A program made the translations under genes and the position numbers. Positions 2,257-39,848 of a stretch of DNA of 64,000 nucleotides are shown one piece after another (the stretch's first letter is position 1; every line of letters begins with the position of its first letter). The notes beneath the pieces were generated by a model. The model searched no databases, was not told the DNA's origin, and was given only the letters and a program-made list of their open reading frames with translations. Origin of the DNA: a virus (taxonomy: Duplodnaviria; Caudoviricetes); the IMG/VR virus record IMGVR_UViG_3300025961_000001, positions 3,745 to 67,744 of that record, one strand, 5' to 3'.

Positions 2257-3690
2257 TTACAACCCAGCGTAACCAAGAGCCGAAGCAAACGCTTGAATCT
2301 TGTCCGAAGGAATAGCATAGATCCTTCCAACTGAATCGTAGACTCCGCCGAACTGTACTGCTAAAGCCTTACGCTTGTCGTCATCCGTCTGGGCACCGAC
2401 TGTGAACTGAGCAAAGAAACAGGTTGCGTCTCCGCCAGTCGATTTGCCGACAAGAGAGAAAACAGCCTGCATAGTACTGGATATAGTAATAGACCCTCCA
2501 CCTACTGAATAGGCTGGTCCGCTCTTTATTGGAGTAGTCTGAATCACGTTTCCATTGAGCTTTATGTCTACCTGATTTGACTGTCCCCAGTTTGCTCGGT
2601 TCGCCCACTTATACCCATAGACATACGTTCCAGCCGCGAGCGTAATCGTCTGACTAATCGATCCCTGATTCTGGATAAACGCCACCTGCCCTAGATCCTC
2701 ATTGCCGCTCGTGAAATCCGAGCCAGATCCCGTAAGCCCAGAGCCTTCGCTAAACGTCCAAGCTGAGCCTTTCGGATTGTAAACATAGGCCGTCTTTCCC
2801 ATTCCAACATTAGGCGTTTGAAAACTTGTGTCTAAAAGCGTTGTATTCATAGTGGCGTATGATCCTAAGAATTCCTTGGAAAAAAGGTCCATTGTGTTTT
2901 TAAAGTTAATCACTCCAGCCCCCTGAGTGTAGGGAGAATTAACTTTCACACATCCGCGCAAGATTAAGTCTTTGACTTCTTCACGTTGTATCGCGTAGCC
3001 AATCTTGTCTGCTTCGTAGAGTAAACGAAGCGCAATCGCGGCCACCTGAGGACAGGTAAGCGATGTATAACCATAAGCCACGCAATCCGGCTGTCTACCA
3101 TCCGGCGCTTCATGCCCAAAGTCCGCCGAACCAACCGCGATAACTTCAGGTGAATACGCTGGAAAATTCTGGAGATATCCACCAGAGTATAGCATGCCAA
3201 GATCTGGCAGCGCCGCGCAACAGACCTGATTCGTATTGTGCAAGTAATCCTTGAGCCGAGCGAATGTGTTCTGTTCAGGCGAAGTACCAGCCGGATAGCC
3301 CGTCACCGAATCCTTCGCTACGTTGTCCCCGAATGAACAGTTGATCACGATCCTAATCCCTGGATCAAGGTCATACGGCATCATAACCGGGAAGGGGTTT
3401 ACCGGCTGCGCATCCGACTTAAACCAAATCCGGCCATCACCCAAGCACGGCTTTCCTTTAAACCACGAAGAGTGTTCTACAAAAATATCTGTGCATATCT
3501 GGCCAGCAGGAGAACTAGCACCAGCCAGAAATCCTGCTACCGCCGTAGCATGCTGGCCTACGCCGAATCCAGTAGTAGGTCCAGTTGCTTCAATCTTAGC
3601 GTTAACCGTGACCGGGTTCGGCATCCAGTTATTCGCTGGCTCATTCCTAGGGCTTGCCTCGACTTGTCTGAATGCGTACCTAGTCGGCAT
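2257..3690 (-). CDS. Atypical subtilisin-like (S8) protease with C-terminal carbohydrate-binding-like beta domain
   Basis: HATAVAG (His motif), VINCSFG, FPAYSPEVIAVGS, YTSLTCPQVAA (Ser motif), QGAGVIN; C-terminal SFQTP...WTF...QVAFIQ..GSISQ domain. Confidence 0.75.
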   Translation of the reverse strand: MPTRYAFRQVEASPRNEPANNWMPNPVTVNAKIEATGPTTGFGVGQHATAVAGFLAGASSPAGQICTDIFVEHSSWFKGKPCLGDGRIWFKSDAQPVNPFPVMMPYDLDPGIRIVINCSFGDNVAKDSVTGYPAGTSPEQNTFARLKDYLHNTNQVCCAALPDLGMLYSGGYLQNFPAYSPEVIAVGSADFGHEAPDGRQPDCVAYGYTSLTCPQVAAIALRLLYEADKIGYAIQREEVKDLILRGCVKVNSPYTQGAGVINFKNTMDLFSKEFLGSYATMNTTLLDTSFQTPNVGMGKTAYVYNPKGSAWTFSEGSGLTGSGSDFTSGNEDLGQVAFIQNQGSISQTITLAAGTYVYGYKWANRANWGQSNQVDIKLNGNVIQTTPIKSGPAYSVGGGSITISSTMQAVFSLVGKSTGGDATCFFAQFTVGAQTDDDKRKALAVQFGGVYDSVGRIYAIPSDKIQAFASALGYAGL

Positions 3691-3691
3691 C

Positions 3692-4039
3692 TTATTTCCA
3701 GGCTTTTTGAAATTCCTGAATCGCGGCCACCAGAGCTTTTCCTGCTTCTGTGATCATTGGTCCATTATAGCGAAATCCCTGTGCGTCTGCTAGCGCAAAG
3801 ACCGATCTAAAGTCTTTGTGGTTCCAAATCTCTTGGTCTTTCTGTGCCATAGCAATGCTAGCGTCACAGAGCGCCTTCGCTGTAGCTTCCTTGTCTTGTG
3901 TTTTTTTCTTTTCGTCGTCTAGCGCTTTCGTGAGAACATCGACCTGAGATTGCAATGTCTCCGATCGAGTCTTCCATCCGTTCTCTGATTCTTGTTCGTC
4001 TGGTTCCATAAGTGGATTTCGGTGCGTGCTATTGATCAT
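3692..4039 (-). CDS. Hypothetical protein
   Basis: Coupled ORF in operon. Confidence 0.7.
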   Translation of the reverse strand: MINSTHRNPLMEPDEQESENGWKTRSETLQSQVDVLTKALDDEKKKTQDKEATAKALCDASIAMAQKDQEIWNHKDFRSVFALADAQGFRYNGPMITEAGKALVAAIQEFQKAWK

Positions 4040-4812
4040 GTGGGTAATAGTTTTTTTCTTACAATGTTAATGGCTTCAAAACCTTTGCTGCCGTGAAAAT
4101 AAACTGGGTGAATCTCCTGGTCCTTTAGTGGGTGATTGTTTGGATACCGCTTAGCTGAAAACAGATATTGCTCTAGGGATACTCCTTCGGGAAGTGGGTT
4201 GTGAACGCTATTGATCCGATAGTCGTTCCAAATCAATTTACTGGCGCGGGCCTTTGGCAAAATAATCGGGGCCTGATAGGTATCCCATGATCCATTCGCG
4301 TGCGTCCTAAAAAACTTGTTGTCCTTAACAAACTGTGGATCGATCAGCATGTTTCCATTGATGTGCTCGGAGTAACACCAGAACATACCCGAACTCATCC
4401 AAGCCCCAAGGATCTGCTGGCTTCCGCCGTGATGCCACTCATCATAGATCTCTTTGATCCAGGTCTTTCGTAGTGGCACGAAGTCTGGTTCCATTAGCAT
4501 GAACGCCGCGTAATCCCAACCCCTGTCTCGGTGACCTACGAATACGTCCGAGACGACCTCTCTAATCTGAGCGTTAGGACCAGCAGGCCATCCCGTCACA
4601 GCATCATTGCAGGTATGTGTGTAGACGTTAGCGAACTTCTTTTTGGCTAGCTCGACAAGGGATGGATCGTGCTTTGTTCCGTAGGCCGCGCTAAACATGA
4701 AGTCTGCGTAGGGACACACGCCGTCCTCTAGGTCTAGGATCAGCCGAGTGAGCGCAAAGGCTACGTCTCTGTCGCCAGGGGAAAACTGAAGAACTAGAAG
4801 TAGTTTTCTCAC
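4036..4812 (-). CDS. Putative GT-A-fold glycosyltransferase-like protein
   Basis: GWPAGPN, FMLMEPDFVP (ExD), HINGN, WD and FHG motifs. Confidence 0.5.
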   Translation of the reverse strand: MRKLLLVLQFSPGDRDVAFALTRLILDLEDGVCPYADFMFSAAYGTKHDPSLVELAKKKFANVYTHTCNDAVTGWPAGPNAQIREVVSDVFVGHRDRGWDYAAFMLMEPDFVPLRKTWIKEIYDEWHHGGSQQILGAWMSSGMFWCYSEHINGNMLIDPQFVKDNKFFRTHANGSWDTYQAPIILPKARASKLIWNDYRINSVHNPLPEGVSLEQYLFSAKRYPNNHPLKDQEIHPVYFHGSKGFEAINIVRKKLLPT

Positions 4813-9425: not shown

Positions 9426-11570
9426 TTAGCCGACTTGCTGAGGAAACGGAGCCACGTTGTTTGGAACCTGTGGTTGTCCCTGCTGCGCCACTGCCATCAT
9501 TGCTTGTTGCTGAGCCTGCGTTTGAGCGGCTTGAGCTTGCTGCTGTTGGAGCGCTTCGATCGATTTCTCGTAAGTCGCAATAAACGACTTCTTTTGATTG
9601 ATCTGCTCGGTTGGGATCATCTTAAGAGCAACCGCAGACTGATAGTGCGCCGCGTAGTGCTTCAACATGGCCTGCGCTACGTTGACCTTGCCAGCCTTGA
9701 TGACCGCATCCATTGCCGAAGGATAGCCTTCCTGCGGAGGTGTAGTCATAGTCTCCATATGCACCCAGTGATTGTCTTTCGCGATAACTGGCAGGTTGAT
9801 TCCGCTACCGATCGTTGTCAGTTCCTCAAGCTGTGTGCGTTGAGCAAGTGTTTGATCCTGGGTATCACCATCTGGGACCACCAAGTAATCCACCAAACTT
9901 TGACCGCCAACCGCACTAGCCATAAGTTTTGCGGCATTGGTCTGCCTGAACAAGGGATTGTTGAGCGTACTCTGAGCAAACTGCGCTTTTTGCGCGGCCA
10001 TGGCGGGTGTAAAGTCTGTGACCGACTGAATAGCCGGTTGCTCCACTAAGAGATCCAACTCCTCTGGGGTTAGCGCAATCCCATCATCGTTTCCTTCCAA
10101 AAGCTTTTTACGAACTTCCTTCGCTACCTTGTCATTACTGCCCTTCATTGTCAGCCGTTTGGTCATAGGCTGAATCAGATACGCAAACTGTTGCATCCAC
10201 CCCTCTAAAACATCACGCTGAACCTCCTGCTCCTGGGCCATAGCCGCGTTAATCTGCGCGGCCTTAATGTCTGATGGCTGGCTTGGAATATCTGGCAAGT
10301 AGGATCCGATGATCTGCTGCATCCATTGCCGCATCTGTTGCTCAAGTGCAATGTATCCCTGGGGGTTCGGGGCAATTCCACCTACGTTATTGGCAAACTG
10401 AGCTTCGGAAACAATGATTGAGGTGTCGTTAACCGTCATTTCCACCTTAGAAGCGTCCTTTGCCTGAGGCACCTGGAGCTTCATTTTATTCGACATCCTT
10501 AGATTATCAATTGAATCGCAGCGTACTTTTTCCAACTGAACTGCCATATCGTAGAGAAGCTGGCCCGCGCCCCAAGATCCGTGGATAGTGCCATCGCCGT
10601 ACCCAAAAACCATCGGGATAACTACGTCATTCATTGAATCGTAGGCATCTAGCTTTTCGTACAAGAGCGCCCAGTATGTTTCTGGCGCATCCTTCCACAG
10701 AATGTAGTGGCTTACTTTGCCCGTCCCCTCCAAAACAAAGAGGTGCTGGGTTTTTATTACCTTGTAGCCTTTTTCGTAGGAGTAATCCCAGACCTGTTCG
10801 CGGATAAGCTCTTCGAACTTCCGCATGTTCTCCATCGTCCACGATTGACTTGGCGTAGTCGCTCGGTGAACCGCAGCTGCCACAGCCTCTTTGTCCCAGT
10901 CGTCTTTGTTTCCATCCCGAGCCAACTTTAAAAGTTCGTCTGGCTGATACTCCCAAAGAAGAGTAAACCGAGCCAAATTGTCATCCATGATCTCGGCCCC
11001 GCGAGGCACAAATCCCCTATCCATCCGGACCATATGCGGACGCCATTGATAGGGATCGGTGAAGCAGCCGAATGTAAACCCGTAGTCTACTACTTCACTA
11101 GACAATCCGCGAACAAAGGTCGGAAACTTCCTCCACGCCTTAATCGCTTTTGTGATTGTCTCTCTAAAGAACTGAGTCTTTTCTTGTCCGAGCGGCCATC
11201 CCGGCGGTAACTCTGCTGCTGTGAGCGTCGACGCGGTCAATATCGGCATATAAAGCCGGGGTGCCGCTCTTTTAAGTTCTGTGGCTAAAGCGCGGGTAGA
11301 TATGTTGGTCTTATATGCTTTGCCCTGATCTTTAAGGCTTGCTCGGGAATAAGGCGTATCTCCTTGCTTCTTGGCCGTGATCCGTGCCGCATTCTGAATT
11401 AGCTTCTTGGCGTCCGTAATATCCCGCTCCACCATCTGGATTGCCTGCGACACCGAGCTCACCACTCGGTTTGTCTGCTCTAAGTCGCTCTCGTTGACTT
11501 CGGGATCGTTCCCGAATTCGTCCAGAGAGCCTGATGTTTCCAAATCCGAATAGGGGAGCTTGTCTGCCAT
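9426..11570 (-). CDS. Portal protein
   Basis: 714 aa, podovirus-like size, helical, Gln-rich C-terminal tail, upstream of scaffold. Confidence 0.75.
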   Translation of the reverse strand: MADKLPYSDLETSGSLDEFGNDPEVNESDLEQTNRVVSSVSQAIQMVERDITDAKKLIQNAARITAKKQGDTPYSRASLKDQGKAYKTNISTRALATELKRAAPRLYMPILTASTLTAAELPPGWPLGQEKTQFFRETITKAIKAWRKFPTFVRGLSSEVVDYGFTFGCFTDPYQWRPHMVRMDRGFVPRGAEIMDDNLARFTLLWEYQPDELLKLARDGNKDDWDKEAVAAAVHRATTPSQSWTMENMRKFEELIREQVWDYSYEKGYKVIKTQHLFVLEGTGKVSHYILWKDAPETYWALLYEKLDAYDSMNDVVIPMVFGYGDGTIHGSWGAGQLLYDMAVQLEKVRCDSIDNLRMSNKMKLQVPQAKDASKVEMTVNDTSIIVSEAQFANNVGGIAPNPQGYIALEQQMRQWMQQIIGSYLPDIPSQPSDIKAAQINAAMAQEQEVQRDVLEGWMQQFAYLIQPMTKRLTMKGSNDKVAKEVRKKLLEGNDDGIALTPEELDLLVEQPAIQSVTDFTPAMAAQKAQFAQSTLNNPLFRQTNAAKLMASAVGGQSLVDYLVVPDGDTQDQTLAQRTQLEELTTIGSGINLPVIAKDNHWVHMETMTTPPQEGYPSAMDAVIKAGKVNVAQAMLKHYAAHYQSAVALKMIPTEQINQKKSFIATYEKSIEALQQQQAQAAQTQAQQQAMMAVAQQGQPQVPNNVAPFPQQVG

Positions 11571-11605: not shown

Positions 11606-12100
11606 TCAAAGATCCAATAGCCCAGAGGGAATCTCTTTGGTTTTGCTGCAAATCAAAGTGGGCGGCTCTTGGCGGCGCGTTACGTGAACCTTTAGCCCAA
11701 CAAGCAGGCCGCGCATCTCCTCTTCATTTTCACGATGAAAATCGTGGCACACAATGAAGTCTGCGTTATCCACAAATACCCTGAACGAGGCTGCTCTAGT
11801 CCAAAATTCTCTGGATTGATCTAAGAAAACCACAGACCATCTAGTGTTAGGATATGGGTCGGTCCTATCGGAAAGGCCGATCTCGTGATACATGGATTTC
11901 AGATTAATAAAACGATTCATCCAGTTCACGTCAGACTCTAAAGAAACCAGCGTACGTTTCTGGCTTACACACATTGCGTGTAGTAATGGCGTTGAAAAGT
12001 TGCCCATCCCGAGCTCGCAGACTGGGCCGTAGGTATTACTAACACACGTTACCAGTGCAGGTAAGTGACTAGACCACATTGCCTCTTCATCGGGATTCAT
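11606..12100 (-). CDS. Class I SAM-dependent methyltransferase-like protein
   Basis: VCELGMGNFST (motif I), LVSLESD, VVFLD, IVCHD. Confidence 0.65.
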   Translation of the reverse strand: MNPDEEAMWSSHLPALVTCVSNTYGPVCELGMGNFSTPLLHAMCVSQKRTLVSLESDVNWMNRFINLKSMYHEIGLSDRTDPYPNTRWSVVFLDQSREFWTRAASFRVFVDNADFIVCHDFHRENEEEMRGLLVGLKVHVTRRQEPPTLICSKTKEIPSGLLDL

Positions 12101-13475
12101 TGTATTTTGGATCAGGGGTTATGGATCTAAAACACGTTATAGACTTCTGAAAGTAAAGCCCGCATCTTCCGCGCCCCTCCGATCTACCCTTAGCCTGTAT
12201 GGCGTCAACGTATAACTTATCAGAATCCTGGTCCAGAGGATCTTGAGGACAGCCCGAAATTGGATCATCCGGTGGGGGATAGAAGAAGATCACGTCATCA
12301 GCATCTTGTTCTATATTCCCGCTTTCCCTAATGTCGGAGAGTCTTGGCTCACGCTTCTCTCGTTCTAGTTCGCGGCTAACTTGGGCCAGCAGGACGACTG
12401 GAATCTTCAGGTCCATCGCGAGGTCCTTAAATGCCATCGTCATTCTGCCTAACGCAATGTCGCGGTTTTCTCCCTTCCCTAGTTCTGGATCGTAACGCTG
12501 AAGATAATCGATAAGAACGGCCTTCAGCTTCTTTGTTTGGGCTAGTGCATTTGTTCGCGCTATGACGTGTGAGAGTGTTCTATCGCGATCAAAGACATGC
12601 AGCGTCTTAGACGCCTGGACTTCTCCAAGCGCCGATATGAACTGATCTTGCTGTCTAGCATCAAGCTGGTTCTTCCTGAACAGCCGCCAGGAAATGCCAG
12701 ATAAGGTCTGAGCGAACAGCGGAGGCAATTGGTCAACTGGCATCTCGCGAGAGAATAGCGCAATATCTCCGTACTTTTCGGCCCAACTCCATGCCGCTTG
12801 CCGCGCTGCGCTTGACTTTCCGATCCCTGGACGAGCAGCAAAGATGATAAGACTACCAGGCTTAGCCTCGCCAAAGCGCTCATTCCATTCTCGCCAAGGC
12901 CACTCCAGGCCAATGTCGGTCTCGATGGGCATCCTGTTCTTGATCCTAATCGCTTTGTCGATTGATTGTTTTGCAGCCTCCGGAAGTGTCTTAATCACCT
13001 GCGTTGAGTGCCTGATCGAAAGGATTCGATTCATCTCGGTTGTGAACTTTTCGACTTCCGCATTCTCCGAGTAAGCTAACTCTGCCACGTTCCTGCCAGA
13101 CTGGATCAACTCCCGCATCACATATGTCTCACGCACACGATCTATGTGATAGTCTAGTTCCATCGTTGTTGGAACCTTTCCGCTCACTTCCATAAGGTAG
13201 GCTATGGCTGTTTTCCCATCCACCTGGATCGCCTCAAGTCTCTGCGTCTTTCTCAGTTCCTCGATCATCACATCCAGTGTGAGTTCTCTCCCGTGCCTGT
13301 GAAGCCAAAGAAACGCCTGGTAGATTTGCCTGTTAGCTGGCTCGTAGAAGCATTCCGGCGAGATGTGACCCTCCATCGCCTTAGCTAGCGAGTGTACTCC
13401 ATCAATGAAAATGCTGCTCAATAAGCTAGACTCAGAGTCTTTTGAATGGGGCGGAATCCTCTCGGAAACTGGCAT
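12087..13475 (-). CDS. dnaB: Replicative DnaB-like helicase
   Basis: PPHS N-terminus, Walker A ARPGIGKS, FSREM, IDYLQ, LAQVSR, PRLSDIRESGNIEQDAD; start moved to 13475. Confidence 0.93.
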   Translation of the reverse strand: MPVSERIPPHSKDSESSLLSSIFIDGVHSLAKAMEGHISPECFYEPANRQIYQAFLWLHRHGRELTLDVMIEELRKTQRLEAIQVDGKTAIAYLMEVSGKVPTTMELDYHIDRVRETYVMRELIQSGRNVAELAYSENAEVEKFTTEMNRILSIRHSTQVIKTLPEAAKQSIDKAIRIKNRMPIETDIGLEWPWREWNERFGEAKPGSLIIFAARPGIGKSSAARQAAWSWAEKYGDIALFSREMPVDQLPPLFAQTLSGISWRLFRKNQLDARQQDQFISALGEVQASKTLHVFDRDRTLSHVIARTNALAQTKKLKAVLIDYLQRYDPELGKGENRDIALGRMTMAFKDLAMDLKIPVVLLAQVSRELEREKREPRLSDIRESGNIEQDADDVIFFYPPPDDPISGCPQDPLDQDSDKLYVDAIQAKGRSEGRGRCGLYFQKSITCFRSITPDPKYNESR

Positions 13476-13611
13476 ATTGTTTGTTACCATAATCCCTGCT
13501 AAAATTTGTCTATCGACCGAAGATGCTTGGCGACTAAGAAATCTCTTAGCGTTTCGGTCAATCATAAAAAATAAGAGTTGCAAGCGGTAGAAAATTAATT
13601 TGACTTTTAAC

Positions 13612-13863
13612 ATGCAAGCGCCACTCACCGTTTTTGATCGCATCCAAGCCCGATTGGAAAAATCGGAAGGTGAAGGTACTACCGTGGTTAAGTTCATTCT
13701 TGGTAAATCTGAGATTGACTGCCTTAAGGAATGGTGCCGTGCGGACGAGATAGAGGTTTTGGATGAAGCTAGCGGAGCATTCACGTTTCGCGGCATCAGC
13801 ATTGAGCCAGTTAACTTCTACTCTTACTTCGCTTACGAGCTGCTCGAACTTGCTCTGGTGTAA
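13612..13863 (+). CDS. Hypothetical protein
   Basis: ORF divergent from dnaB. Confidence 0.6.
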   Translation: MQAPLTVFDRIQARLEKSEGEGTTVVKFILGKSEIDCLKEWCRADEIEVLDEASGAFTFRGISIEPVNFYSYFAYELLELALV

Positions 13864-28092: not shown

Positions 28093-29073
28093 ATGGCCAC
28101 AGTGATCCCAGTTTCTTTTCGAGTTGCGCCGTTTCCTGATAACGCTGATTACACGCCGCAGGAGTTTGCCGATGCGCTAGTGGCCAGACTTTCGATAGAA
28201 TCACCGACCACGATCTCTTTCTTCGTTTCGGGACCAACCGCACCCACAAGCAACGTAGGCCCGTGGCTTAAGAATGGAGTTACTTGGTACGTTTGGGATA
28301 CACCAACGGCTTCATATGTTCCTCAGGTAATTGAGAGCCAGAGCCTAAGATACATATTTCAGAACGGAGCACCGGATCACAATTTTTACACATTTTGGGG
28401 AAGTCTTAACGGAACCGGAAAGGCTCAGTCTATCCAATACTTTTGGAACGGAGATTGGCACGATGTTTACGAGGACACGTTTGCCCTGTACACAAAGACC
28501 GTGGACATGAACACGGCAATAGATAACAAGATTGCAACTGCGCTGGTTCCGTACTCTACGACGATTCAGATGAACACGGCCATTCAGGCGGCTGTTCAAG
28601 GAGTAGCCTTCGGTAAGGGCGCGTTCCAGGTTGTCATGGGGTCATCTCAACATCAGGCTATTGCTGTTTCTGATAGCGGCACGATTACGCCTATCTTCAA
28701 CGTGGTCACAGCAGATCCAGACGGCTGCTTCTCCGGCAGCAAATATACCTGCCCAGCCAACGGCTACTACATCTTCAACGTCATCCTTCAGGTAAATGCA
28801 GATGACTCGAACACAACTGACCTTGGAACTATCTGCAATATCCTTAAAAACGCTGGGGTAGGAATTGCTGGAAATGTACTCCAATCTCAAGCCGATCCAT
28901 CGGCAGCAATGGCCCAAGCGGTAACGGTGGGGCCCGTTCTCATGAATATTGGAGACCAAGTTTACGTTACCCTGGATTACACGATCACGGTAACGGCCCC
29001 GTCTGGCATCTTGGTTGGTGGCGGCGGTCCTGCCGGAGCACAGTTTAGCGGGCTAATGGTTCGAAGCGCATGA
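28093..29073 (+). CDS. Fibre-like protein with C-terminal C1q/BclA-like domain
   Basis: IFNVV..DPDGCF..SKYTCPANGYYIF...FSG; internal MNTAI repeat. Confidence 0.65.
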   Translation: MATVIPVSFRVAPFPDNADYTPQEFADALVARLSIESPTTISFFVSGPTAPTSNVGPWLKNGVTWYVWDTPTASYVPQVIESQSLRYIFQNGAPDHNFYTFWGSLNGTGKAQSIQYFWNGDWHDVYEDTFALYTKTVDMNTAIDNKIATALVPYSTTIQMNTAIQAAVQGVAFGKGAFQVVMGSSQHQAIAVSDSGTITPIFNVVTADPDGCFSGSKYTCPANGYYIFNVILQVNADDSNTTDLGTICNILKNAGVGIAGNVLQSQADPSAAMAQAVTVGPVLMNIGDQVYVTLDYTITVTAPSGILVGGGGPAGAQFSGLMVRSA

Positions 29074-29678
29074 TCAAGTCCTATCAAGTTTTCGATAATT
29101 TCTTAGACACGTCTGTCCTAGATATGCCAAGCTTGGTGCGCGACTCGGCTATTCATGCGGGCTTTGGAAACTGGATTCCAGGTAAAGACGAAACCTCGGC
29201 CAGCCTAGACGGCATGGGCTTTGGCGGAAATCACGCGATTCTCACAAAAGCGCTAATGAACGCTACGGGAGTTATCGCTGTTCCCAACCTGACACATTTT
29301 CGGCTAACGACGAAGCACACAGAGCGCGCCACGATTCACTCAGACGCACACGCGGCACCCTACACCTGCATAGCCTACCTTACGCAGAATAAAAATCAAG
29401 GGGCTACGGCATTCTGGAAGCACAAAGAAACTGGTCTAACTGCCCTTCCTGCTAATCTAAATCAAGAGACAGCTGCAATGCTCCGCGATGACATGGCGAA
29501 AAGCAGCATGGAAGACTGGGAAATTACCGACATCGTTAAGGGCGAGTATAACCGAGCGCTAGTTTTTAATGCACCGCTTTTTCACTGCCGATATCCAATG
29601 GAAGATCCGGGCACAGACCTTGAATCGGGTCGTTTAGTCTGGATTTGCCACTACTTCAACCTACAGGAGATGAAATGA
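29070..29678 (+). CDS. 2OG-Fe(II) oxygenase (DUF6445-like)
   Basis: VFDNFL, IHSD (HxD), YLT, GATAFW.H, YNRALVFNAPLFH, RLVW. Confidence 0.8.
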   Translation: MIKSYQVFDNFLDTSVLDMPSLVRDSAIHAGFGNWIPGKDETSASLDGMGFGGNHAILTKALMNATGVIAVPNLTHFRLTTKHTERATIHSDAHAAPYTCIAYLTQNKNQGATAFWKHKETGLTALPANLNQETAAMLRDDMAKSSMEDWEITDIVKGEYNRALVFNAPLFHCRYPMEDPGTDLESGRLVWICHYFNLQEMK

Positions 29679-31244: not shown

Positions 31245-32345
31245 ATGGCTAGCACGAGTGGCTTCGGCGTCCAAGTGATGCCAAATATTCAATTCGCTGA
31301 TGGAGCGCAATTGGCTGGGCGTGGACCAGGCGAGGCTATTGCTGGGTTTAATTCTGGCATTGGAGCCGTAAACGCCATTCAGAATACGCGGCAGAAAGCT
31401 ATTCTTGCGCCAATTGAGCAGGAAGCTGCGAGGGCACGTTTGGCACAAATCCAGGCCGAAACTGAATTGGCTCAGGCCCAAGCACCATATCGTGCCGCAT
31501 TGGCTAGGATTGAAACGGCCAAAGCGAGCCAACCGTTCAGGACAAAGCAGGGAGAATCTATTGTTCAGGTTCCTAGGCTGGACGCGAACGGACAACCGAC
31601 GGGACAGTATGATCAAGTAATTCAGGAAAGCGGTGTGCAATACGATCCAGTTACGGGTACAAGCAGTCCATACACGGCAAACATGAAGCCGCTGGTTACG
31701 GCTGAAACGGCTGCGCTAAATAATTCCCTTATAGGTTCTCGACAATCTACTGCGGAATATCAGCAAGACCAAGCTGCTGCGAGAGCCGAGGCTAACAGAA
31801 TTGCTGCGCTTAACGCTCAGACCAATCAGGATCGGGCTAAGGCTCAGGCTGACTTGTATGCTCAGAGAATCAACCATTACAAGGCCCTTGAGGCGCAAGG
31901 TAAGGTTCAGATCTTTCAGACAGTAGACGCCAATGGCAATTTGGTTCTAAATCCTGTAGACGTTAAAACGCGGCAGGCGCTCCCTCCTATCAGTCTGAAC
32001 GCTAAACCGAATCGTTCGGTTGATCCGTTTGCGGCAATGATGTCAGGAGATGGTAAGGTGGGTGCCGTTAAGCCAAAGAGTGAGAGTATGGCAACAGCAG
32101 CCACGAATTGGGTGAAGAATAAGATCAATTCATTCACTTCGCCGTCTCCCGCTGCGGATCAACCAGTGACTACGCTTCCCATAATTCCGGCTGGTTCCGT
32201 TGGCCAAGCACCACCAAACCCTGGACCTCCAGACATTCCAGATGACAGTGAGATCGATAATCTCCTCGGGTTTAATCCGACTCCAGTAGCTCAGCCTAAT
32301 GCAGCTCCCGTGTCGCCCTACAAAATTCGTGTGGTTAAACCCTAA
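31245..32345 (+). CDS. Internal virion / ejection protein
   Basis: A/Q-rich helical protein between ejection genes. Confidence 0.6.
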   Translation: MASTSGFGVQVMPNIQFADGAQLAGRGPGEAIAGFNSGIGAVNAIQNTRQKAILAPIEQEAARARLAQIQAETELAQAQAPYRAALARIETAKASQPFRTKQGESIVQVPRLDANGQPTGQYDQVIQESGVQYDPVTGTSSPYTANMKPLVTAETAALNNSLIGSRQSTAEYQQDQAAARAEANRIAALNAQTNQDRAKAQADLYAQRINHYKALEAQGKVQIFQTVDANGNLVLNPVDVKTRQALPPISLNAKPNRSVDPFAAMMSGDGKVGAVKPKSESMATAATNWVKNKINSFTSPSPAADQPVTTLPIIPAGSVGQAPPNPGPPDIPDDSEIDNLLGFNPTPVAQPNAAPVSPYKIRVVKP

Positions 32346-35300
32346 TGCCTACTTATGAGGTAACAGGTCCCTCCGGTACGGTCATTGAAATGGAGGGAGC
32401 TAATCCGCCCAGCCAAGCGGATATTGATGCCGCGTTTGCGAGTATCCAACAAACAGCTTCGCCTGCGGCACCGACTTCGTCTGGTGGTGCTGATTTGGCG
32501 AGGATGGCAAGTGCTGCTTATAACGCGCCTGCTCCTAATATCGGAGCAAATCTAAACCTCCGTGATGCTCGTGCAGCAGGAGGACAGACCTTAAGCTTAT
32601 CTCAGGCTAGCCCAATTGCTCGTGAACGTGCGTATGATGTCCTTGGCGGGATTACTGGTCAAGGCGGATCTGAAGCCGCGCAGTTCACTAAGGAGTTTAG
32701 GGCAGCGCCAGTAGGCCAAGCGTTTCAAGACCGAGATCTAGGCGCTATCGTTAAGACTGGCGACAATACTTTTAGGCGTGTTGGCCAAGCTCCGCAGCGT
32801 GAACAAACGGAAGGGGATATTTCTACCCAACTTTTAAATCAGGTATCCAACGCAGATATCGGTGGCGCTCTTAGTACGCTTCAACCCGGATTTAACCGAG
32901 CTGGTAATCTGGCTGTCCGTAGCGGTGGATTGGTTGCGTCAACGCTTGCTCCAGAGCTTAGACTCCCAGGGCTTATTCTTGGATCTACGGGTGAACTAGC
33001 GGGCCAAGCAATCGACGCTGAAAGCGCGGGGCAAGATCCACTCAATTGGCGTAACTACAGTTTACCAGGTATAGTTGGTGCTGGTTTAGTGAGTACAGTT
33101 GGATCTGGCGCTACGGCTCCTACGCTTAGGCAGGCGGCAGCACAAGGCCTCCTTGAGGGTGGTGCGCTAGAGGCTCCGTATCAACTATCGAGTTTAACGG
33201 CTGGACCAACGCAGCCTGAAATTGATCCTAATACGGGACTACCTATTGGCGCGGCTAAATACGAAGGAAACGCTACGGATCTACTACCTACGCTAGCCAT
33301 GGGCCTAGGTGCTCGTGGAGGTCACGCTATTGCGAACGCTATTTCAGATCTAAGAAATCCTCGTTTGCCGCAAATTGAGTCTGCTCCAGCTAGCTACACG
33401 GACCAAGGAATAATCAATGCTCAGGCGGCGCGGCAAGCTGAAGGCAACGCGGCACTTGCTGACGCATTTCAAGGCGAACAACGAGCGCTACAGGGCATAG
33501 ATACAGGCTATCAGAATGCCGTAGAGCTACAGGCTCCAGTCCAAGCGCAGAACGTTCTTGATGCCGCCGAAGCACAAGGAGCAGTTAACGCACAGAGACA
33601 GGGTGCGATTCTGGATAACCCGGCTACGCCGCAAAGCGCTCAAGCACTTCGAGAGCAATTAGCACTTGAACAGCAAGCGGCTGATCGTGCAGTGCAGCAG
33701 CAGAATATTTTGAGACAGGCGTCTGGCCTGGATTTACAGGAAGCAATGCGGGCTAATCAGATTCAGCCTAGCACGCTTACGCCGATTGAAACCTCTCCTC
33801 AAGAACTGGCAGCTAGGCAGATTAGAGAACTGGACGCTCAACGGGCTACCGCGCTTCCGTTAAACGCTGAGCTTTCATCTCAGGCCAATAGGATGAACGA
33901 GCAATACGGGCGGGCGCTTCCTATTGCTCTTCCGACAATTGCTGGCGTAGGTGTTGGTGGTGCTATTGGATCAACGCAAGGCGATACGCCACAAGAGCGA
34001 TTTCAAAATACAGTTCTTGGTGCTGTTGGTGGTGGTCTGCTTGGCGCGGGCGGAACGGCTGCTGCTCGGCTAGCTCAACCAGAGCTTAATGCTGGCGAAC
34101 AGGTATTGGCTAAAGCGGCTAAGCCACCGAGTCTAGCCAACATTGTAGCTGAAACTGCTTCTCACGTCGAAGGAAGTCCTGCTAGTACGCAGGCCGCAGC
34201 TAATGCGCTCACTCAGACTCCAAAACTACCTACGATCTCAGAGGCTACCGCGCAGCAATCGGCATTGGTTCAAGGTCTTAAGGAGATGGGGTATAGCGAT
34301 AACGACATTGTCGATATAAAACGTAACAACACACCTGAAAAAATCAGTGAAACCATTAATCGTAACCCTAGTAACACTAGGGTCGCAATATTGAACGAAG
34401 AGGGGAATGTTGTTGGTCAAAGCGAAGACCTATTCCAAAAAATTAAGGCATATAAAAGCGCGTATCCGTCCGAGATGACTGGAGAAGAATTTAATCGTCT
34501 ACGTCAACAAGATCAAATTGGAGGAAATCAAAATGCCATTCAAAAGCAAAGCGCAACAAGCGAAGTGTTACGCCCTGAAAGCACAGGGGAAAGCGGGAAA
34601 TTGGAACTGCCTAGCGTGGAGTCACGAAACGCCCAATCAGAAATCGTTGCCGGAACACAAGCCCTCGACCAAGCAATCCAAAACATCGAACAAGCACCGC
34701 CGCTAAAGCCGCTGCCCGAAGACACAGAGTTTCTGTATGAGCAAAAGTATGACACCAAGTCAGGGCCAAAGTCCGAGCGGTATTACCAGGTTGACCGAAC
34801 GCCCGACAATCCAAGAGGAAGAACTGTTGATGAAGCAACCCTGCGCTCGGAGGGGTACGATACTTCTGGACTCCCAGGACCCGAAGAGAATCCAGCAAAT
34901 TCTGGATCTTCTCAATTCTCGGGTGCTATTGGAGCTGGCGGAACTCAAGGCGCAGTCACAGGAAAAGCGTTAGGCATACTTGCCGGTGGCGCTACCGGCG
35001 GCACGCTTGGCTTTCTTGGGTCCAACGAGAAAGACGATAAGCTAGTCCACGCTGTAGCCGGGGCAATCATTGGCGGAATCGGCGCTGCTGCTTTGATGAA
35101 AGGGGCGGACGCCATAACCAGGGCCAAGGTTGGGCAAGAACTAGATGTTCTGCGCCGCAACATAATCAATGAGAATATCCCGCGCTTAAGGAACGCATCG
35201 GAAGAATCCGCTAATGCTGTGTTTCGTTATGCCAATGCGCCACAGGCGGCCGAGGACGTAGCGAAAGACATGCAGGCTAGGGTGCTTGGAAGTCAGTATA

Positions 35301-37750
35301 AAAGCCCGGAGTTCTCAAAGAGGCTAGGTTCTGTTTGGGTCGAAGAACAGCAGAGGGGGCTAAAAAATAGTTTGGAGGAGGCCGCAAACAACGCGTCCAC
35401 TCCAGAGGAAGCTGCGCAGCTACGCAAGCAGGCATCTAAAGTAGTAAGCACAATTGGGCGTGAAAGCGTATTCAAGAATGAGGCCGAATTTCAGGCCGCG
35501 TTAAATGATCCACAGATCAAACAGGCCAACGAGATTTTTAAGCAGACCGTTCAGCCCGCAGCCGAGGCGCGTCATTTGCTCACGGGCGGATTTGATTCCA
35601 GAGAAGAGTATGAGGCCGCGATTCAAGAAGCGCTAAAAAACGGAGATCCACTTCCAACTGTAAAGCTTGCTGCCCCAGGACCAAATACTGGAGTTTTCAT
35701 AAACCAGCAGCCAATATTTGAAGAGGCTAAAGAAGTTACTGGCGGATCATCGCCAAAGGGCAACCTCCGAAATCCGCTTCAGCGCCGGTCTGCATTTTCT
35801 AAAGTTCGTAAGGGCACCGCAGAAGAGTACAACATTGACGCCAATAGCCTGATTGATCGGATGGTCAAAGGTAACTATGAGGATGCTGCTAAGCGGAACA
35901 TGTATACACAGCTTGAAAAAGACGGGCTGGGTGTAGCGTTACCTCCCGGAGAGAGACCAGCCGACTTAGATACTGGCCGTTACGGTGGATCTATCCCTAT
36001 TGAGCAACGTGGATCTGGGAGTGAGAATATCCAATTTTGGCCAGATAAATCTATTGAAAGAGAGCTACGCACAGCTCTGAACACGGATGGACCGTTGAGC
36101 AAAGCAGGGATAGCTCATCAATTGCGCGGAGCAATGAACCTGATTCAGATGCGCGGTCTAACCGATCCGGTTGTGCACGGGGCCAACATTATTGCTGGTA
36201 TCGCGTCTGCTCCCGGTGGAGAAAACTTCCTTACTCAAGTGTTTAGGGGCATGCCGATAGCATCCTCGTTCGATGCTCTTGGAAAAGTGGGGATGAAGGT
36301 TGTTGACCTTATCAAGGACACCCCAGAAATCCGGTCGCAAATTGCCAATCTTTCTGAAATCGGAAGCATTAGGCCGGTCTACGAAGGGGACACAAATCGT
36401 ATCAGTCGATTCCTCCACACGGTAGACAAAGCCGGTAGGTTGGCCTTAGATGATCTGTATCAGACCTTGGTTGATCGTGGATTGGTCCAAGAGTCAGAAG
36501 CTGGTAGGCGCGACTTTGCCAATAGGATTGGTCAGTACAATAGCCGTTTGCTTGGCAAGTATGACGCTATCCTAAAGGAGTCTGGATTATCGCCGTTCCT
36601 GGTTGCTGGTAAAAACTTCAATTCTATTGGCCTTAAACAAGTCGGAGCACTTGGCGGGCTATCCACTGGAGGAGTGAAGGCTGCGTCCAAAGCAGCAAGC
36701 TTGCAGCTTAGGGCAGCACAGACAATCGGAGCCTACAGCACACTTGTCGCCATTCCAGCGGTGATTAACTATCTGGCCTGGGGAGATCCGGGCGGACCAG
36801 AAGGAACCCCACTTGGTAAGATTGCACTAAATGAAAGTGACGATGGAAAGCGCTACTACTTTGATCCTGCACAGCTCACACTTCTTCGGCGCGGACTTCG
36901 CAGTACAGGCCTGCAAGCGGTCCTAACCGGCGCACAAACTGGCGACAATCTAAACAACGTAGGTGGTCAAGCATGGCGAGACGTAAGAAACGCGCTCATT
37001 CACCCATACGCTGGTCCAGTCCCAACCGCTGCAGTCACCGCTTTAACGGGATATAACCCAACATTCCATCGCGTAGCGGAGACCGTAACCCCTATTGGTC
37101 AAAGCCCAGACACGCTAAGGCAGCTTGGAGCTAATGCGAGTGCCGCGTTTAGAAACCTAAATCCGGTTCAAGGAGCCTTCGCGGAATCAGCTACGCCTAA
37201 AGCTGGAGAAGAGGCGTTTGGCCCAGGAGAATCAATTCTACCTGGAGTCGGAAACATGCTCATGGATCTTGCTGGCGCTGGTGGTCTGCGTAGGGCGACA
37301 CCGCTGAGTGAAGATACGGGCGCGCTTCACGAGGCTCAAGACGAACGCTTCGAGGCCAACAGAAACCGCAAGAAGCTTATCGAGTCAATTATCGCAGGAA
37401 GCACAGACGCCAATGGCCAACTGGATCTGTCTCAGGTTCGGGCGCACATTCAAATGCCAGAGATTCAACAGGCGATCCGAGAGAACCCACTGCAAGCCCA
37501 GCTTCTCAAGAACGAGATTCGTACCGCAGTTAAACAAAAACTCCAAGGCCAACAGAAGTCAGACGTTGAAAGTAAGTTCAATGTCGCTGAAGGAGAACGT
37601 GCCCAGTTTTACCTGAACCGAATCTCGAATCTTTCGCCAGAAGAAGCGCAACAGTACCTGCGAGATCAGAAGGCAAAAGGATATTTGACTAGGAAGGTCT
37701 TGCAACAAATGAATTATTTACGATCGAGACAACCCGCTGGTGTTCCGTGA
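32345..37750 (+). CDS. Large internal virion / ejection protein (1801 aa)
   Basis: MPTYEVTGPSG...EG.NPPSQ N-terminus, glycine-zipper hydrophobic hairpins, last in ejection cluster. Confidence 0.75.
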   Translation: MPTYEVTGPSGTVIEMEGANPPSQADIDAAFASIQQTASPAAPTSSGGADLARMASAAYNAPAPNIGANLNLRDARAAGGQTLSLSQASPIARERAYDVLGGITGQGGSEAAQFTKEFRAAPVGQAFQDRDLGAIVKTGDNTFRRVGQAPQREQTEGDISTQLLNQVSNADIGGALSTLQPGFNRAGNLAVRSGGLVASTLAPELRLPGLILGSTGELAGQAIDAESAGQDPLNWRNYSLPGIVGAGLVSTVGSGATAPTLRQAAAQGLLEGGALEAPYQLSSLTAGPTQPEIDPNTGLPIGAAKYEGNATDLLPTLAMGLGARGGHAIANAISDLRNPRLPQIESAPASYTDQGIINAQAARQAEGNAALADAFQGEQRALQGIDTGYQNAVELQAPVQAQNVLDAAEAQGAVNAQRQGAILDNPATPQSAQALREQLALEQQAADRAVQQQNILRQASGLDLQEAMRANQIQPSTLTPIETSPQELAARQIRELDAQRATALPLNAELSSQANRMNEQYGRALPIALPTIAGVGVGGAIGSTQGDTPQERFQNTVLGAVGGGLLGAGGTAAARLAQPELNAGEQVLAKAAKPPSLANIVAETASHVEGSPASTQAAANALTQTPKLPTISEATAQQSALVQGLKEMGYSDNDIVDIKRNNTPEKISETINRNPSNTRVAILNEEGNVVGQSEDLFQKIKAYKSAYPSEMTGEEFNRLRQQDQIGGNQNAIQKQSATSEVLRPESTGESGKLELPSVESRNAQSEIVAGTQALDQAIQNIEQAPPLKPLPEDTEFLYEQKYDTKSGPKSERYYQVDRTPDNPRGRTVDEATLRSEGYDTSGLPGPEENPANSGSSQFSGAIGAGGTQGAVTGKALGILAGGATGGTLGFLGSNEKDDKLVHAVAGAIIGGIGAAALMKGADAITRAKVGQELDVLRRNIINENIPRLRNASEESANAVFRYANAPQAAEDVAKDMQARVLGSQYKSPEFSKRLGSVWVEEQQRGLKNSLEEAANNASTPEEAAQLRKQASKVVSTIGRESVFKNEAEFQAALNDPQIKQANEIFKQTVQPAAEARHLLTGGFDSREEYEAAIQEALKNGDPLPTVKLAAPGPNTGVFINQQPIFEEAKEVTGGSSPKGNLRNPLQRRSAFSKVRKGTAEEYNIDANSLIDRMVKGNYEDAAKRNMYTQLEKDGLGVALPPGERPADLDTGRYGGSIPIEQRGSGSENIQFWPDKSIERELRTALNTDGPLSKAGIAHQLRGAMNLIQMRGLTDPVVHGANIIAGIASAPGGENFLTQVFRGMPIASSFDALGKVGMKVVDLIKDTPEIRSQIANLSEIGSIRPVYEGDTNRISRFLHTVDKAGRLALDDLYQTLVDRGLVQESEAGRRDFANRIGQYNSRLLGKYDAILKESGLSPFLVAGKNFNSIGLKQVGALGGLSTGGVKAASKAASLQLRAAQTIGAYSTLVAIPAVINYLAWGDPGGPEGTPLGKIALNESDDGKRYYFDPAQLTLLRRGLRSTGLQAVLTGAQTGDNLNNVGGQAWRDVRNALIHPYAGPVPTAAVTALTGYNPTFHRVAETVTPIGQSPDTLRQLGANASAAFRNLNPVQGAFAESATPKAGEEAFGPGESILPGVGNMLMDLAGAGGLRRATPLSEDTGALHEAQDERFEANRNRKKLIESIIAGSTDANGQLDLSQVRAHIQMPEIQQAIRENPLQAQLLKNEIRTAVKQKLQGQQKSDVESKFNVAEGERAQFYLNRISNLSPEEAQQYLRDQKAKGYLTRKVLQQMNYLRSRQPAGVP
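34533..34706 (+). CDS. Small basic protein overprinted in an alternative frame of the ejection gene
   Basis: GGAGG at 34520-34524, 8 nt before ATG; MPFKSKAQQAKCYALKAQGKAGNWNCLAWSHETPNQKSLPEHK. Confidence 0.65.
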   Translation: MPFKSKAQQAKCYALKAQGKAGNWNCLAWSHETPNQKSLPEHKPSTKQSKTSNKHRR

Positions 37751-39047: not shown

Positions 39048-39848
39048 ATGAGCCATTGGTACAAACCGAATCCAGATGGAACAATAACTACGCATCACGA
39101 TTCAGATTTGCGTGATGCTCGAAAGATGGGGCTTTACTGCTCAATCACTACGATAGAAAAAGCAATTCGAGTAAACCCTGGACTTACCAGGTGGATGGAG
39201 GGGGAGATCATTAAGGCAACCATCGCTTATCCAAAGATGGAGTGGGAGGACCTCAAGGCTTACGTAGATCGAATTAAGAAAGCGTCTGGAAAGATTGCCG
39301 AGACTGCCGCCGATTTTGGTACGAGATTGCATGATGCGCTCCAGCATTTTCCTCAGTATCCAATGGACCTCCAGATTATCCCATACTTTGAAAAATATGC
39401 TGCTTGGCATGACGCTAACATCGTAGAGATTATTGGATCTGAGCTCGTGCTAGCCAATGATCAGATAGCGGTAGCTGGAACCCTAGATAAAGTTGTCAGG
39501 CACAAGACACACGGACTCCTGGTCATCGACTACAAATCTCAGGACGTAAAAGCCAAACCGGCTTTCTATTCAAGTTGGGCAAGACAATTAAGTTTCTATG
39601 CCAAAACATGGGCCAAGAAGAACTGCTGCGAAACGCCTAGGCTTATGTCGCTAATCGTCGATAGCAACGAACCAAAGGCTCCAATAGCTCAGCTATGGTC
39701 GGATGAGGATGCCGAGAAAGCATGGAAGGAGACTGTTGCTCATGCTTGGCTGTGGGCTGCTGAGCGCGACTTTTGGGCAAACGGACCGTGGGAGATCGCG
39801 GATGTGCTCAACGAAACAGCGGACTTTCAAAACGACATACCTGTATGA
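39048..39848 (+). CDS. PD-(D/E)XK RecB/Cas4-like exonuclease
   Basis: GTRLH, SELVL, AGTLD, IDYKS, QLSFY. Confidence 0.85.
   Translation: MSHWYKPNPDGTITTHHDSDLRDARKMGLYCSITTIEKAIRVNPGLTRWMEGEIIKATIAYPKMEWEDLKAYVDRIKKASGKIAETAADFGTRLHDALQHFPQYPMDLQIIPYFEKYAAWHDANIVEIIGSELVLANDQIAVAGTLDKVVRHKTHGLLVIDYKSQDVKAKPAFYSSWARQLSFYAKTWAKKNCCETPRLMSLIVDSNEPKAPIAQLWSDEDAEKAWKETVAHAWLWAAERDFWANGPWEIADVLNETADFQNDIPV

Follow-up and report, generated by a model that had tools for sequence, protein, structure and literature searches.

A conserved small basic protein gene probably nested one base out of frame in a giant phage virion-module gene

Introduction

In the spanin genes of phages lambda (Rz/Rz1) and T7 (18.5/18.7), a small gene lies in the +1 frame of a larger late gene and has its own start, with both genes being translated; across related phages, the spanin genes are found in embedded, overlapped and separate layouts. 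Gene B within A and gene E within D of phiX174 are the classic overprinted novelties of tiny genomes. A different group of small late proteins, the T4 internal proteins and the adenovirus proteins VII and mu, comprises strongly basic DNA-associated core proteins that are made with the structural genes and have variable tails rich in K, R and S. Here we analyse a 57-codon open reading frame (ORF) nested out of frame within a 1801-aa ORF of a tailed virus (Caudoviricetes). It lies in a stretch of 64,000 nucleotides, called the window below, which covers positions 3,745 to 67,744 of the IMG/VR record IMGVR_UViG_3300025961_000001, a complete virus of 67,744 bp with terminal repeats.

The arrangement resembles that of Rz1, since a larger late gene encloses the nested gene entirely, in the +1 frame, and the nested gene has its own start. 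Unlike Rz/Rz1, the hosts are unrelated (genes in scaffold position and giant virion genes), and the nested gene would be the older and is the more conserved partner. We considered an Rz1-type spanin and rejected it, as the protein has a charged MPFKSKAQQAK start, shows no hydrophobic leader or lipobox when its sequence is read, is modelled as a helical hairpin and sits in a 1801-aa host. With phiX174 the locus shares out-of-frame nesting in morphogenesis-related genes and a substitution pattern dominated by one frame; in contrast, the genome is of 67.7 kb and the nested family has hundreds of free-standing members. The likeness to the core proteins of T4 and adenovirus is a functional analogy only, with no relation in sequence or fold to the nested protein.

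A candidate nested gene and its family

We estimate a probability of about 0.78 that positions 34533-34706 (+ strand) are a real protein-coding gene that sits, shifted by one base, within the 1801-aa virion-module gene. The ORF comprises 57 codons and a TAA, and its start is offset from that of the host ORF (32345..37750, +, in the virion-module block) by 2188 nt, or 3x729+1, which places it in the +1 frame. An earlier note on this DNA had pointed to a GGAGG lying 8 nt before an ATG that opens a 57-aa basic ORF; these coordinates are borne out, and the first 43 residues of the peptide, P0001, match those quoted there. P0001 carries 12 K+R against 2 D+E. Its conserved N-terminal mini-domain, codons 1-43 (34533..34661, +), opens with MPFKSKAQ and continues with C12, W24, C26, W29, T33 and L39-P40, while codons 44-57 (34662..34703, +) form a basic C-terminal tail, extended in the structural model, whose stop (34704-34706) falls within the conserved host flank. 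Across the nested ORF, the host frame reads NAIQKQSATSEVLRPE.

What sets the ORF apart from chance is homology, not length. A profile of 56 family members, built without P0001, was run against the 1138 stop-to-stop segments of at least 30 aa in the six frames of the window, and its sole match was the segment +34479-34703 (E 6.7e-24, 80.5 bits); the alignment begins exactly at the nested Met, and the runner-up segment reached E 0.067. The nested ORF is also the sole copy of the family in the record. Four called proteins of 46-67 aa, at 54-73% identity, came from a word-indexed search. The profile A1 built from them was then searched against 1.84 billion cluster representatives; 506 of these matched at E<=1e-3, and 80 of them at E<=1e-10. 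Among the 150 of the 506 that were listed, which are proteins of 41-1708 aa, 136 matches start at residue 1 or 2. The earlier suggestion that the peptide is a recurrent small phage protein has therefore held in the profile search as well as in the locus scans given below.

Of the 153 family proteins that were collected, 62 have at most 100 aa and 67 have at least 150 aa. The family takes three forms: stand-alone basic proteins of 41-100 aa, N-terminal domains of longer proteins, and nested copies. Short members consist of a domain of ~40 residues followed by a strongly basic tail, whose net charge is at least +3 in 49 of 57 members (median +6). In the alignments A1 and A2, P0001 keeps the near-invariant P2, S5 and T33, together with M1, F3, Q8, C12, W24, C26, L39 and P40. 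Judged by its sequences, the family is a large and unnamed one of small basic phage proteins. In a literature search, no publication on the family or its nesting was found among the listings and abstracts returned.

Database comparisons left the family without a name. The mini-domain itself was matched by no Pfam model among the members tested. Three longer relatives (L011, L023 and L024) matched phrog_1375, a PHROGs v4 family of unknown function, weakly over residues 3-34 (E 5e-5 to 5e-3), and P0001 gave no match to it at E<=1. The ESM Atlas proposed DUF3008 (PF11450), with a feature score of 0.89 and a cluster in which 37% of the members carry DUF3008; we rejected this assignment, as none of the 57 A2 members matches that model at E<=10, and the Atlas otherwise returned unnamed viral clusters only. 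AlphaFold2, run on the 57-sequence alignment, gave a model with a mean pLDDT of 84.7 (~90 over residues 1-40), in which helices at 6-18 and 26-32 are followed by an extended tail. Foldseek found no match to this model in the PDB at E<=10, a wide VIA search with it gave nothing useful (best Z 2.3), and the family profile matched none of the PDB sequences; in BFVD, there were weak matches to uncharacterised viral proteins only (best E 4e-3).

Among the 67 long members, DUF5661 is present in seven and Phage_Mu_F in five, so that the mini-domain forms the N-terminus of some MuF-type proteins, in a head/packaging setting; unlike these, P0001 has no MuF domain. One polyvalent member of 1708 aa combines InPase, peptidase C39 and MuF with an ADP-ribosyltransferase-like match that lies below the Pfam cut-off. 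In the text of the polyvalent-protein paper of Iyer et al. 2017 (PMC5512222) that was covered by a term search, the words 'overlapping', 'frameshift' and 'linker' are absent.

Some members carry further features. The locus L107 encodes tandem paralogues, at 2809-3918 (369 aa) and 4001-4666 (221 aa), each of which opens with the family domain; the 18-mers upstream of the two are identical. A motif of the GPRGG.Y.. type is appended to P0086, P0107, P0118, P0124, P0134, P0146, P0153 and L022, one of which comes from a contig labelled as a giant-virus MAG (metagenome-assembled genome). The Pfam family PBCV_basic_adap was matched by 4 of 57 members, and P0016 and P0100 end in Cys-rich basic motifs.

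Substitutions follow the small frame

The frame under selection could be followed in 28 distinct hosts of ~400 aa, which were codon-aligned on the host protein and placed on a tree, with Fitch changes counted per site. Downstream of the overlap, the changes at host codon positions 1/2/3 are 2.41/1.61/5.27, and over nested codons 1-36 they are 3.36/1.76/1.56. The substitution periodicity within the overlap is thus that of the small frame. In this set, residues M1-Q8, A11, C12, P18, W20, C22, K23, W25 and T29 never change, although they undergo up to nine synonymous changes each, with 9 at T29.

Nested copies in giant hosts behave in the same way. Eight representatives show 609/965 identities (63%) in the nested frame and 351/965 (36%) in the host frame over the same nucleotides, in an alignment that was built on the nested frame and favours it, which is a point to be held against this comparison; the nested-frame identity exceeds that of the host frame in 28 of 28 pairs. 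The earlier proposal of a real nested gene is supported, with selection in its own frame in both the ~400-aa and the giant hosts.

A further trace of the two frames is found at Phe3, which is encoded by TTC in 18 of 18 distinct nested copies and in 14 of 25 free copies (Fisher p 0.00097), even though the nested loci with TTC have a median GC of 33%. At this position TTT would put a TAA in the host frame. The codon bias therefore indicates that both frames are read, with the small one alone shaping the amino acids.

These data also bear on the idea that the conserved item is a motif of the host frame, [DN]A[IV]Q[KE]QS..., or an element of the nucleic acid itself, for example a DNA site or a structure in the RNA. 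The motif does recur wherever the small ORF is nested, but it is forced by the codons for MPFKSKAQ. Constraint within the overlap is strongest at host third positions and weakest at host first positions, a pattern typical of the other frame. Moreover, the family occurs without an overlapping frame in 22+10 of the 83 sequences and 37+25 of the 77 loci described below, and the region is predicted to be unusually unstructured. We regard this as the least credible of the explanations that we weighed.

The start site

The Shine-Dalgarno-like (SD-like) motif GGAGG lies at 34520-34524 (+), 8 nt ahead of the nested ATG, in an A-rich context with little predicted structure. Its rarity before starts in this genome, asserted in the earlier note, holds approximately: GGAGG precedes 1 of 58 long-ORF starts, and 46 of the 58 have no 4-mer SD-like motif in the upstream 22 nt, all 58 being mechanically chosen longest-ORF guesses. 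The lack of SD-like motifs before these 46 starts suggests that the host of the virus relies little on SD pairing. On the + strand of the window there are 60 GGAGG motifs, and 4 of these have an ATG 4-10 nt downstream. The motif is retained in two relatives of the host gene that carry the same nested ORF (L084 and L088). SD-like motifs precede other nested ATGs as well (L017, L058, L077, L081 and L096), and nested copies in giant hosts from SD-using backgrounds have AAGGAGG, AAGGAG or GAGGAG before the ATG.

The start region is also unusually open. A 60-nt segment centred on the nested ATG has a minimum free energy of -4.2 kcal/mol, compared with -12.5 +/- 4.3 in 1782 such segments of the host gene. 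An equally open region is found in 2% of these 1782, and in 1 of 53 segments centred on an ATG. The small protein would then be made by internal initiation on the late mRNA, through its own SD-like motif and unstructured start, and without frameshifting. In its predicted product, a two-helix mini-domain of ~40 residues would begin at the initiator Met and lead into a tail that is variable and highly basic.

One could argue instead that the mini-domain is expressed by frameshifting, either as a fusion to the N-terminal 730 aa of the host or, by a -1 slip near the tail, as a fusion to the C-terminal part of the host that would resemble the in-frame relatives. The domain is indeed often found fused in frame to long proteins, and the 62-aa protein P0111 joins a small-frame peptide to a sequence like the ~400-aa host frame (compare L006 and L078). 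Furthermore, AT-rich nested copies end in A-runs, where an exit by -1 slippage is conceivable. The P0111 junction could be a natural one-base indel, A-run slippage or a sequencing error. Against frameshifting, the tail of the window copy has no A-run. Homology begins exactly at the Met, and in seven nested loci (L044, L051 and L053-L057) a stop codon in the same frame lies immediately 5' of the ATG, which at these loci rules out a frameshift as the way in. Inspection by eye showed a single X XXY YYZ heptamer, at codons 21-23 within the domain; nested ORFs and stand-alone proteins share the same kind of basic tail; and by BLASTP the host proteins show no similarity to the C-terminal regions of members in which the domain is fused in frame. 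Frameshifting is thus a very improbable source of the protein, and internal initiation is the explanation that we keep.

A swapped cassette in close relatives

The 1801-aa host protein has no relative in Pfam, PHROGs or the PDB, and a nucleotide search with positions 33500-35700 found no match among GenBank phages. Five relatives of the host gene were available: L083-L086, at 81-89% identity, and L088. Their comparison shows that the nested ORF is part of a swapped cassette of ~220 nt (34485..34703, +, boundaries approximate), which contains a leader, the SD-like motif and the small ORF without its stop. It begins ~48 nt ahead of the ATG and ends with the last sense codon, so that the nested stop lies within the shared flank. 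Besides the window, L084 and L088 have the cassette. Between the same flanks, L083, L085 and L086 have an unrelated segment of 74 codons, whose +1 frame contains seven or eight stops. No second copy of the family was found in the records of L083, L085 and L086, which are 9-53% complete. Stops in close relatives had been named earlier as a sign against a gene; stops are present in three of the five, but they lie in a different, unrelated segment and not in a decayed copy.

Of the 360 sites beyond the cassette at which the window and L088 differ, 52/13/295 fall at host codon positions 1/2/3, a pattern that identifies the host gene as translated and constrained in its own frame. The nested ORF itself has six differences, two in the core and four in the tail. 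The core differences, at 34589 and 34622 (against L084 and L088), both fall at host position 1 and are synonymous in the nested frame while changing the host protein (E to Q and S to P). Given a baseline of 14.4% for host position 1, finding two of two there has p ~0.02. The four tail differences, against L088, are all at host position 3, where three leave the host residue unchanged; each of the four alters a tail residue. Within this lineage the core follows the small frame and the tail does not.

In DNA contigs from coded sequencing runs, only two alleles were seen, the window type and the L084 type: contigs of run X4 are identical to the window over 34366-34798, and a contig of run X2 has both of the L084-type changes. 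Contigs from coded runs labelled rhizosphere metagenome carry the window stretch, and no RNA data set is listed as carrying it.

Several points weigh against a functional gene at this locus, and some of them would fit a recently captured, non-functional copy whose frame is open through recency, with only the host protein mattering here. Three of the five close relatives do without the cassette, so the nested gene is at best accessory, and one of them, L086, has no other family copy in a record of 35.8 kb (53% complete). The lineage test has just two informative core substitutions, and the tail substitutions track the host frame. As SD motifs are the exception in this genome, the significance of the GGAGG is uncertain. 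In addition, the length of the nested ORF is unremarkable, as the host gene contains 10 same-strand alternative-frame ORFs of at least 40 aa, two of them longer than it. P0001 matches no Pfam family at E<=1 and just one PHROGs family, at E 0.16, and its translation is something that we infer from features of the sequence.

A recent, inert capture nevertheless fits other observations poorly. Both core substitutions are silent for the nested peptide and alter the host protein, the start region is among the 2% least structured of the host gene, the SD-like motif has been kept in L084 and L088, and the purifying selection on nested copies elsewhere shows that nesting as such is not inactivating. 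We consider such a capture improbable, though less so than the frameshift explanation, and favour a functional nested gene.

Nesting in other phages

The same arrangement is found well beyond this lineage. A tblastn search of GenBank phages with the peptide matched 70 records, 68 of them from Flavobacterium phages. Among the 40 of these records that were listed, the match always lies under a feature named only 'structural protein', and it is this giant gene alone that is annotated, in agreement with the earlier prediction that gene callers would miss the nested copy. In one of the matched records, an unannotated family ORF of 42 codons occupies the +1 frame of a coding sequence of ~3690 codons. 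In the part of PMC7077304 covered by a term search, the Flavobacterium 'elemo' phages, which are cultured phages with a nested copy, are unmentioned.

A scan of viral contigs confirmed at least 98 of at least 600 pattern matches, and 80 loci from it were listed. Together with the GenBank phage, L084 and the window, these make up a context set of 83 sequences. The family ORF is nested in genes of ~400 aa in 30 of them, in ORFs of at least 900 aa in 12 and in hosts cut by a contig end in five; it stands alone in 22 and forms the N-terminal domain of a 113-248-aa protein in 10, while four cases, with overlapping frames of 150-340 aa in GC-rich DNA, are uncertain. In all 47 nested copies, the host frame is nested+2. 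Nested copies made up a smaller share in a scan of metagenomes, which found the ORF in 77 of 80 loci, with 37 stand-alone copies, 25 N-terminal domains, 14 nested copies and one uncertain case, nesting being classed here for the geometry in which the host frame is nested+2.

Four stand-alone-looking copies on GC-rich contigs (L134, L149, L159 and L138, of the 'RRKFAQLLVEGK' subfamily) have open frames of 251-405 aa at nested+1. These frames may be chance ORFs of GC-rich DNA or may point to a second geometry of nesting.

The ~400-aa hosts match nothing in Pfam or PHROGs. They lie downstream of the large terminase, between the portal gene and virion-structural genes, and, from this gene order, would occupy the position of a scaffolding gene.

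Since no Pfam model is matched by the family members tested, and since gene callers systematically overlook the nested copies, virion proteomes, pangenomes and censuses of phage protein families miss a late gene that appears to be conserved. The prediction can be tested directly in the cultured Flavobacterium phages. To the arrangement as such, the present analysis adds the cassette polymorphism, the constraint on the Phe3 codon, the openness of the start site and the neighbourhood of the packaging module.

Origin of the nesting

The earlier note had described the small gene as overprinted, and here the direction has to be reversed. It is more likely, from the sequences compared, that the small gene is older than the host reading across it. 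The small family is widespread in free-standing form, with many such copies and 506 cluster representatives in all, and the host frame shows no constraint beyond staying open, which is why we propose that the giant ORF reads across an older gene. A de novo overprinted gene is ruled against by the free-standing copies, by the unconstrained host frame in the overlap and by the replaceable host segment. We also considered whether the downstream part of the host might be the old C-terminus of an in-frame member, and found no support for this, as BLASTP of the hosts against the 153 family proteins gave no match at E<=0.01.

In the lineage of the window, the ~220-nt cassette would have brought the small gene, in place of a stretch that the host protein can do without. 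The host frame would cross the cassette as a linker, its only visible constraint being the lack of a stop. Such a route is the opposite of classical overprinting, since long ORFs would extend over pre-existing small genes or gain them by cassette exchange; the small frame would keep the selective upper hand, and the long frame need only stay open.

It is tempting to go further and to see the small gene and its leader as a self-contained cassette that is exchanged between phages and always settles in one relative frame, within permissive linkers or 5' regions of late virion genes, with giant ORFs and scaffold-position genes having repeatedly overgrown or received the older gene. Its product would be a packaged protein, associated with the portal or with DNA and made by internal initiation in step with virion synthesis, in an accessory role such as guarding or anchoring the ejected DNA end against host defences; that near-identical phages may have or lack the gene would be a mark of such a role. 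Taken as a whole, this extended proposal is speculative, and we think it rather unlikely to be right in all its parts.

Possible function

More narrowly, the nested product may be a packaged, DNA-associated small head protein, in which the mini-domain serves as an assembly or anchoring module and the tail binds nucleic acid. We put this forward tentatively, at somewhat less than even odds, and both its location in the virion and its binding of DNA are what we infer from the basic tails, the MuF-type fusions, the portal adjacency of the ~400-aa hosts and the neighbours of stand-alone copies. The DNA-condensing core protein suggested in the earlier note would fit the very basic tails across the family. 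As to these neighbours, the named PHROGs families flanking stand-alone copies are mostly large terminases (phrog_2, four times; phrog_979, three times; two more, once each), portal proteins (phrog_156, four times; phrog_1216, twice), a head-tail adaptor (three times) and several HNH endonucleases.

A head or packaging role draws its support from context, which counts against it. The 83 ORFs that flank 59 stand-alone copies matched 28 PHROGs families in all, with most ORFs unmatched, and PHROGs identified no portal or terminase in the window.

Other features of the window

Downstream of the cassette, the host protein has Gly/Ala-rich, membrane-like stretches. Two further ORFs in the +1 frame of the host gene, 34737-34973 (78 aa, +) and 37308-37616 (102 aa, +), were considered as genes and set aside: they have no PHROGs match and are probably not genes. 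The first of them is open in relatives only where the DNA is near-identical, and is replaced wholesale where L084 and L088 differ.

Elsewhere, a 714-aa ORF (9426-11570, -) and a 486-aa ORF of the window have no PHROGs match. The 266-aa ORF at 39048-39848 (+) matches exonuclease families (phrog_298, E 1.5e-19). A 202-aa ORF at 29070-29678 (+) has a match to the 'minor coat protein' family phrog_1644 (E 1.6e-14) and a weaker one to an endonuclease V family. The 571-aa ORF at 12087-13802 (-) is a DnaB-like replicative helicase (phrog_19, E 4.5e-67).

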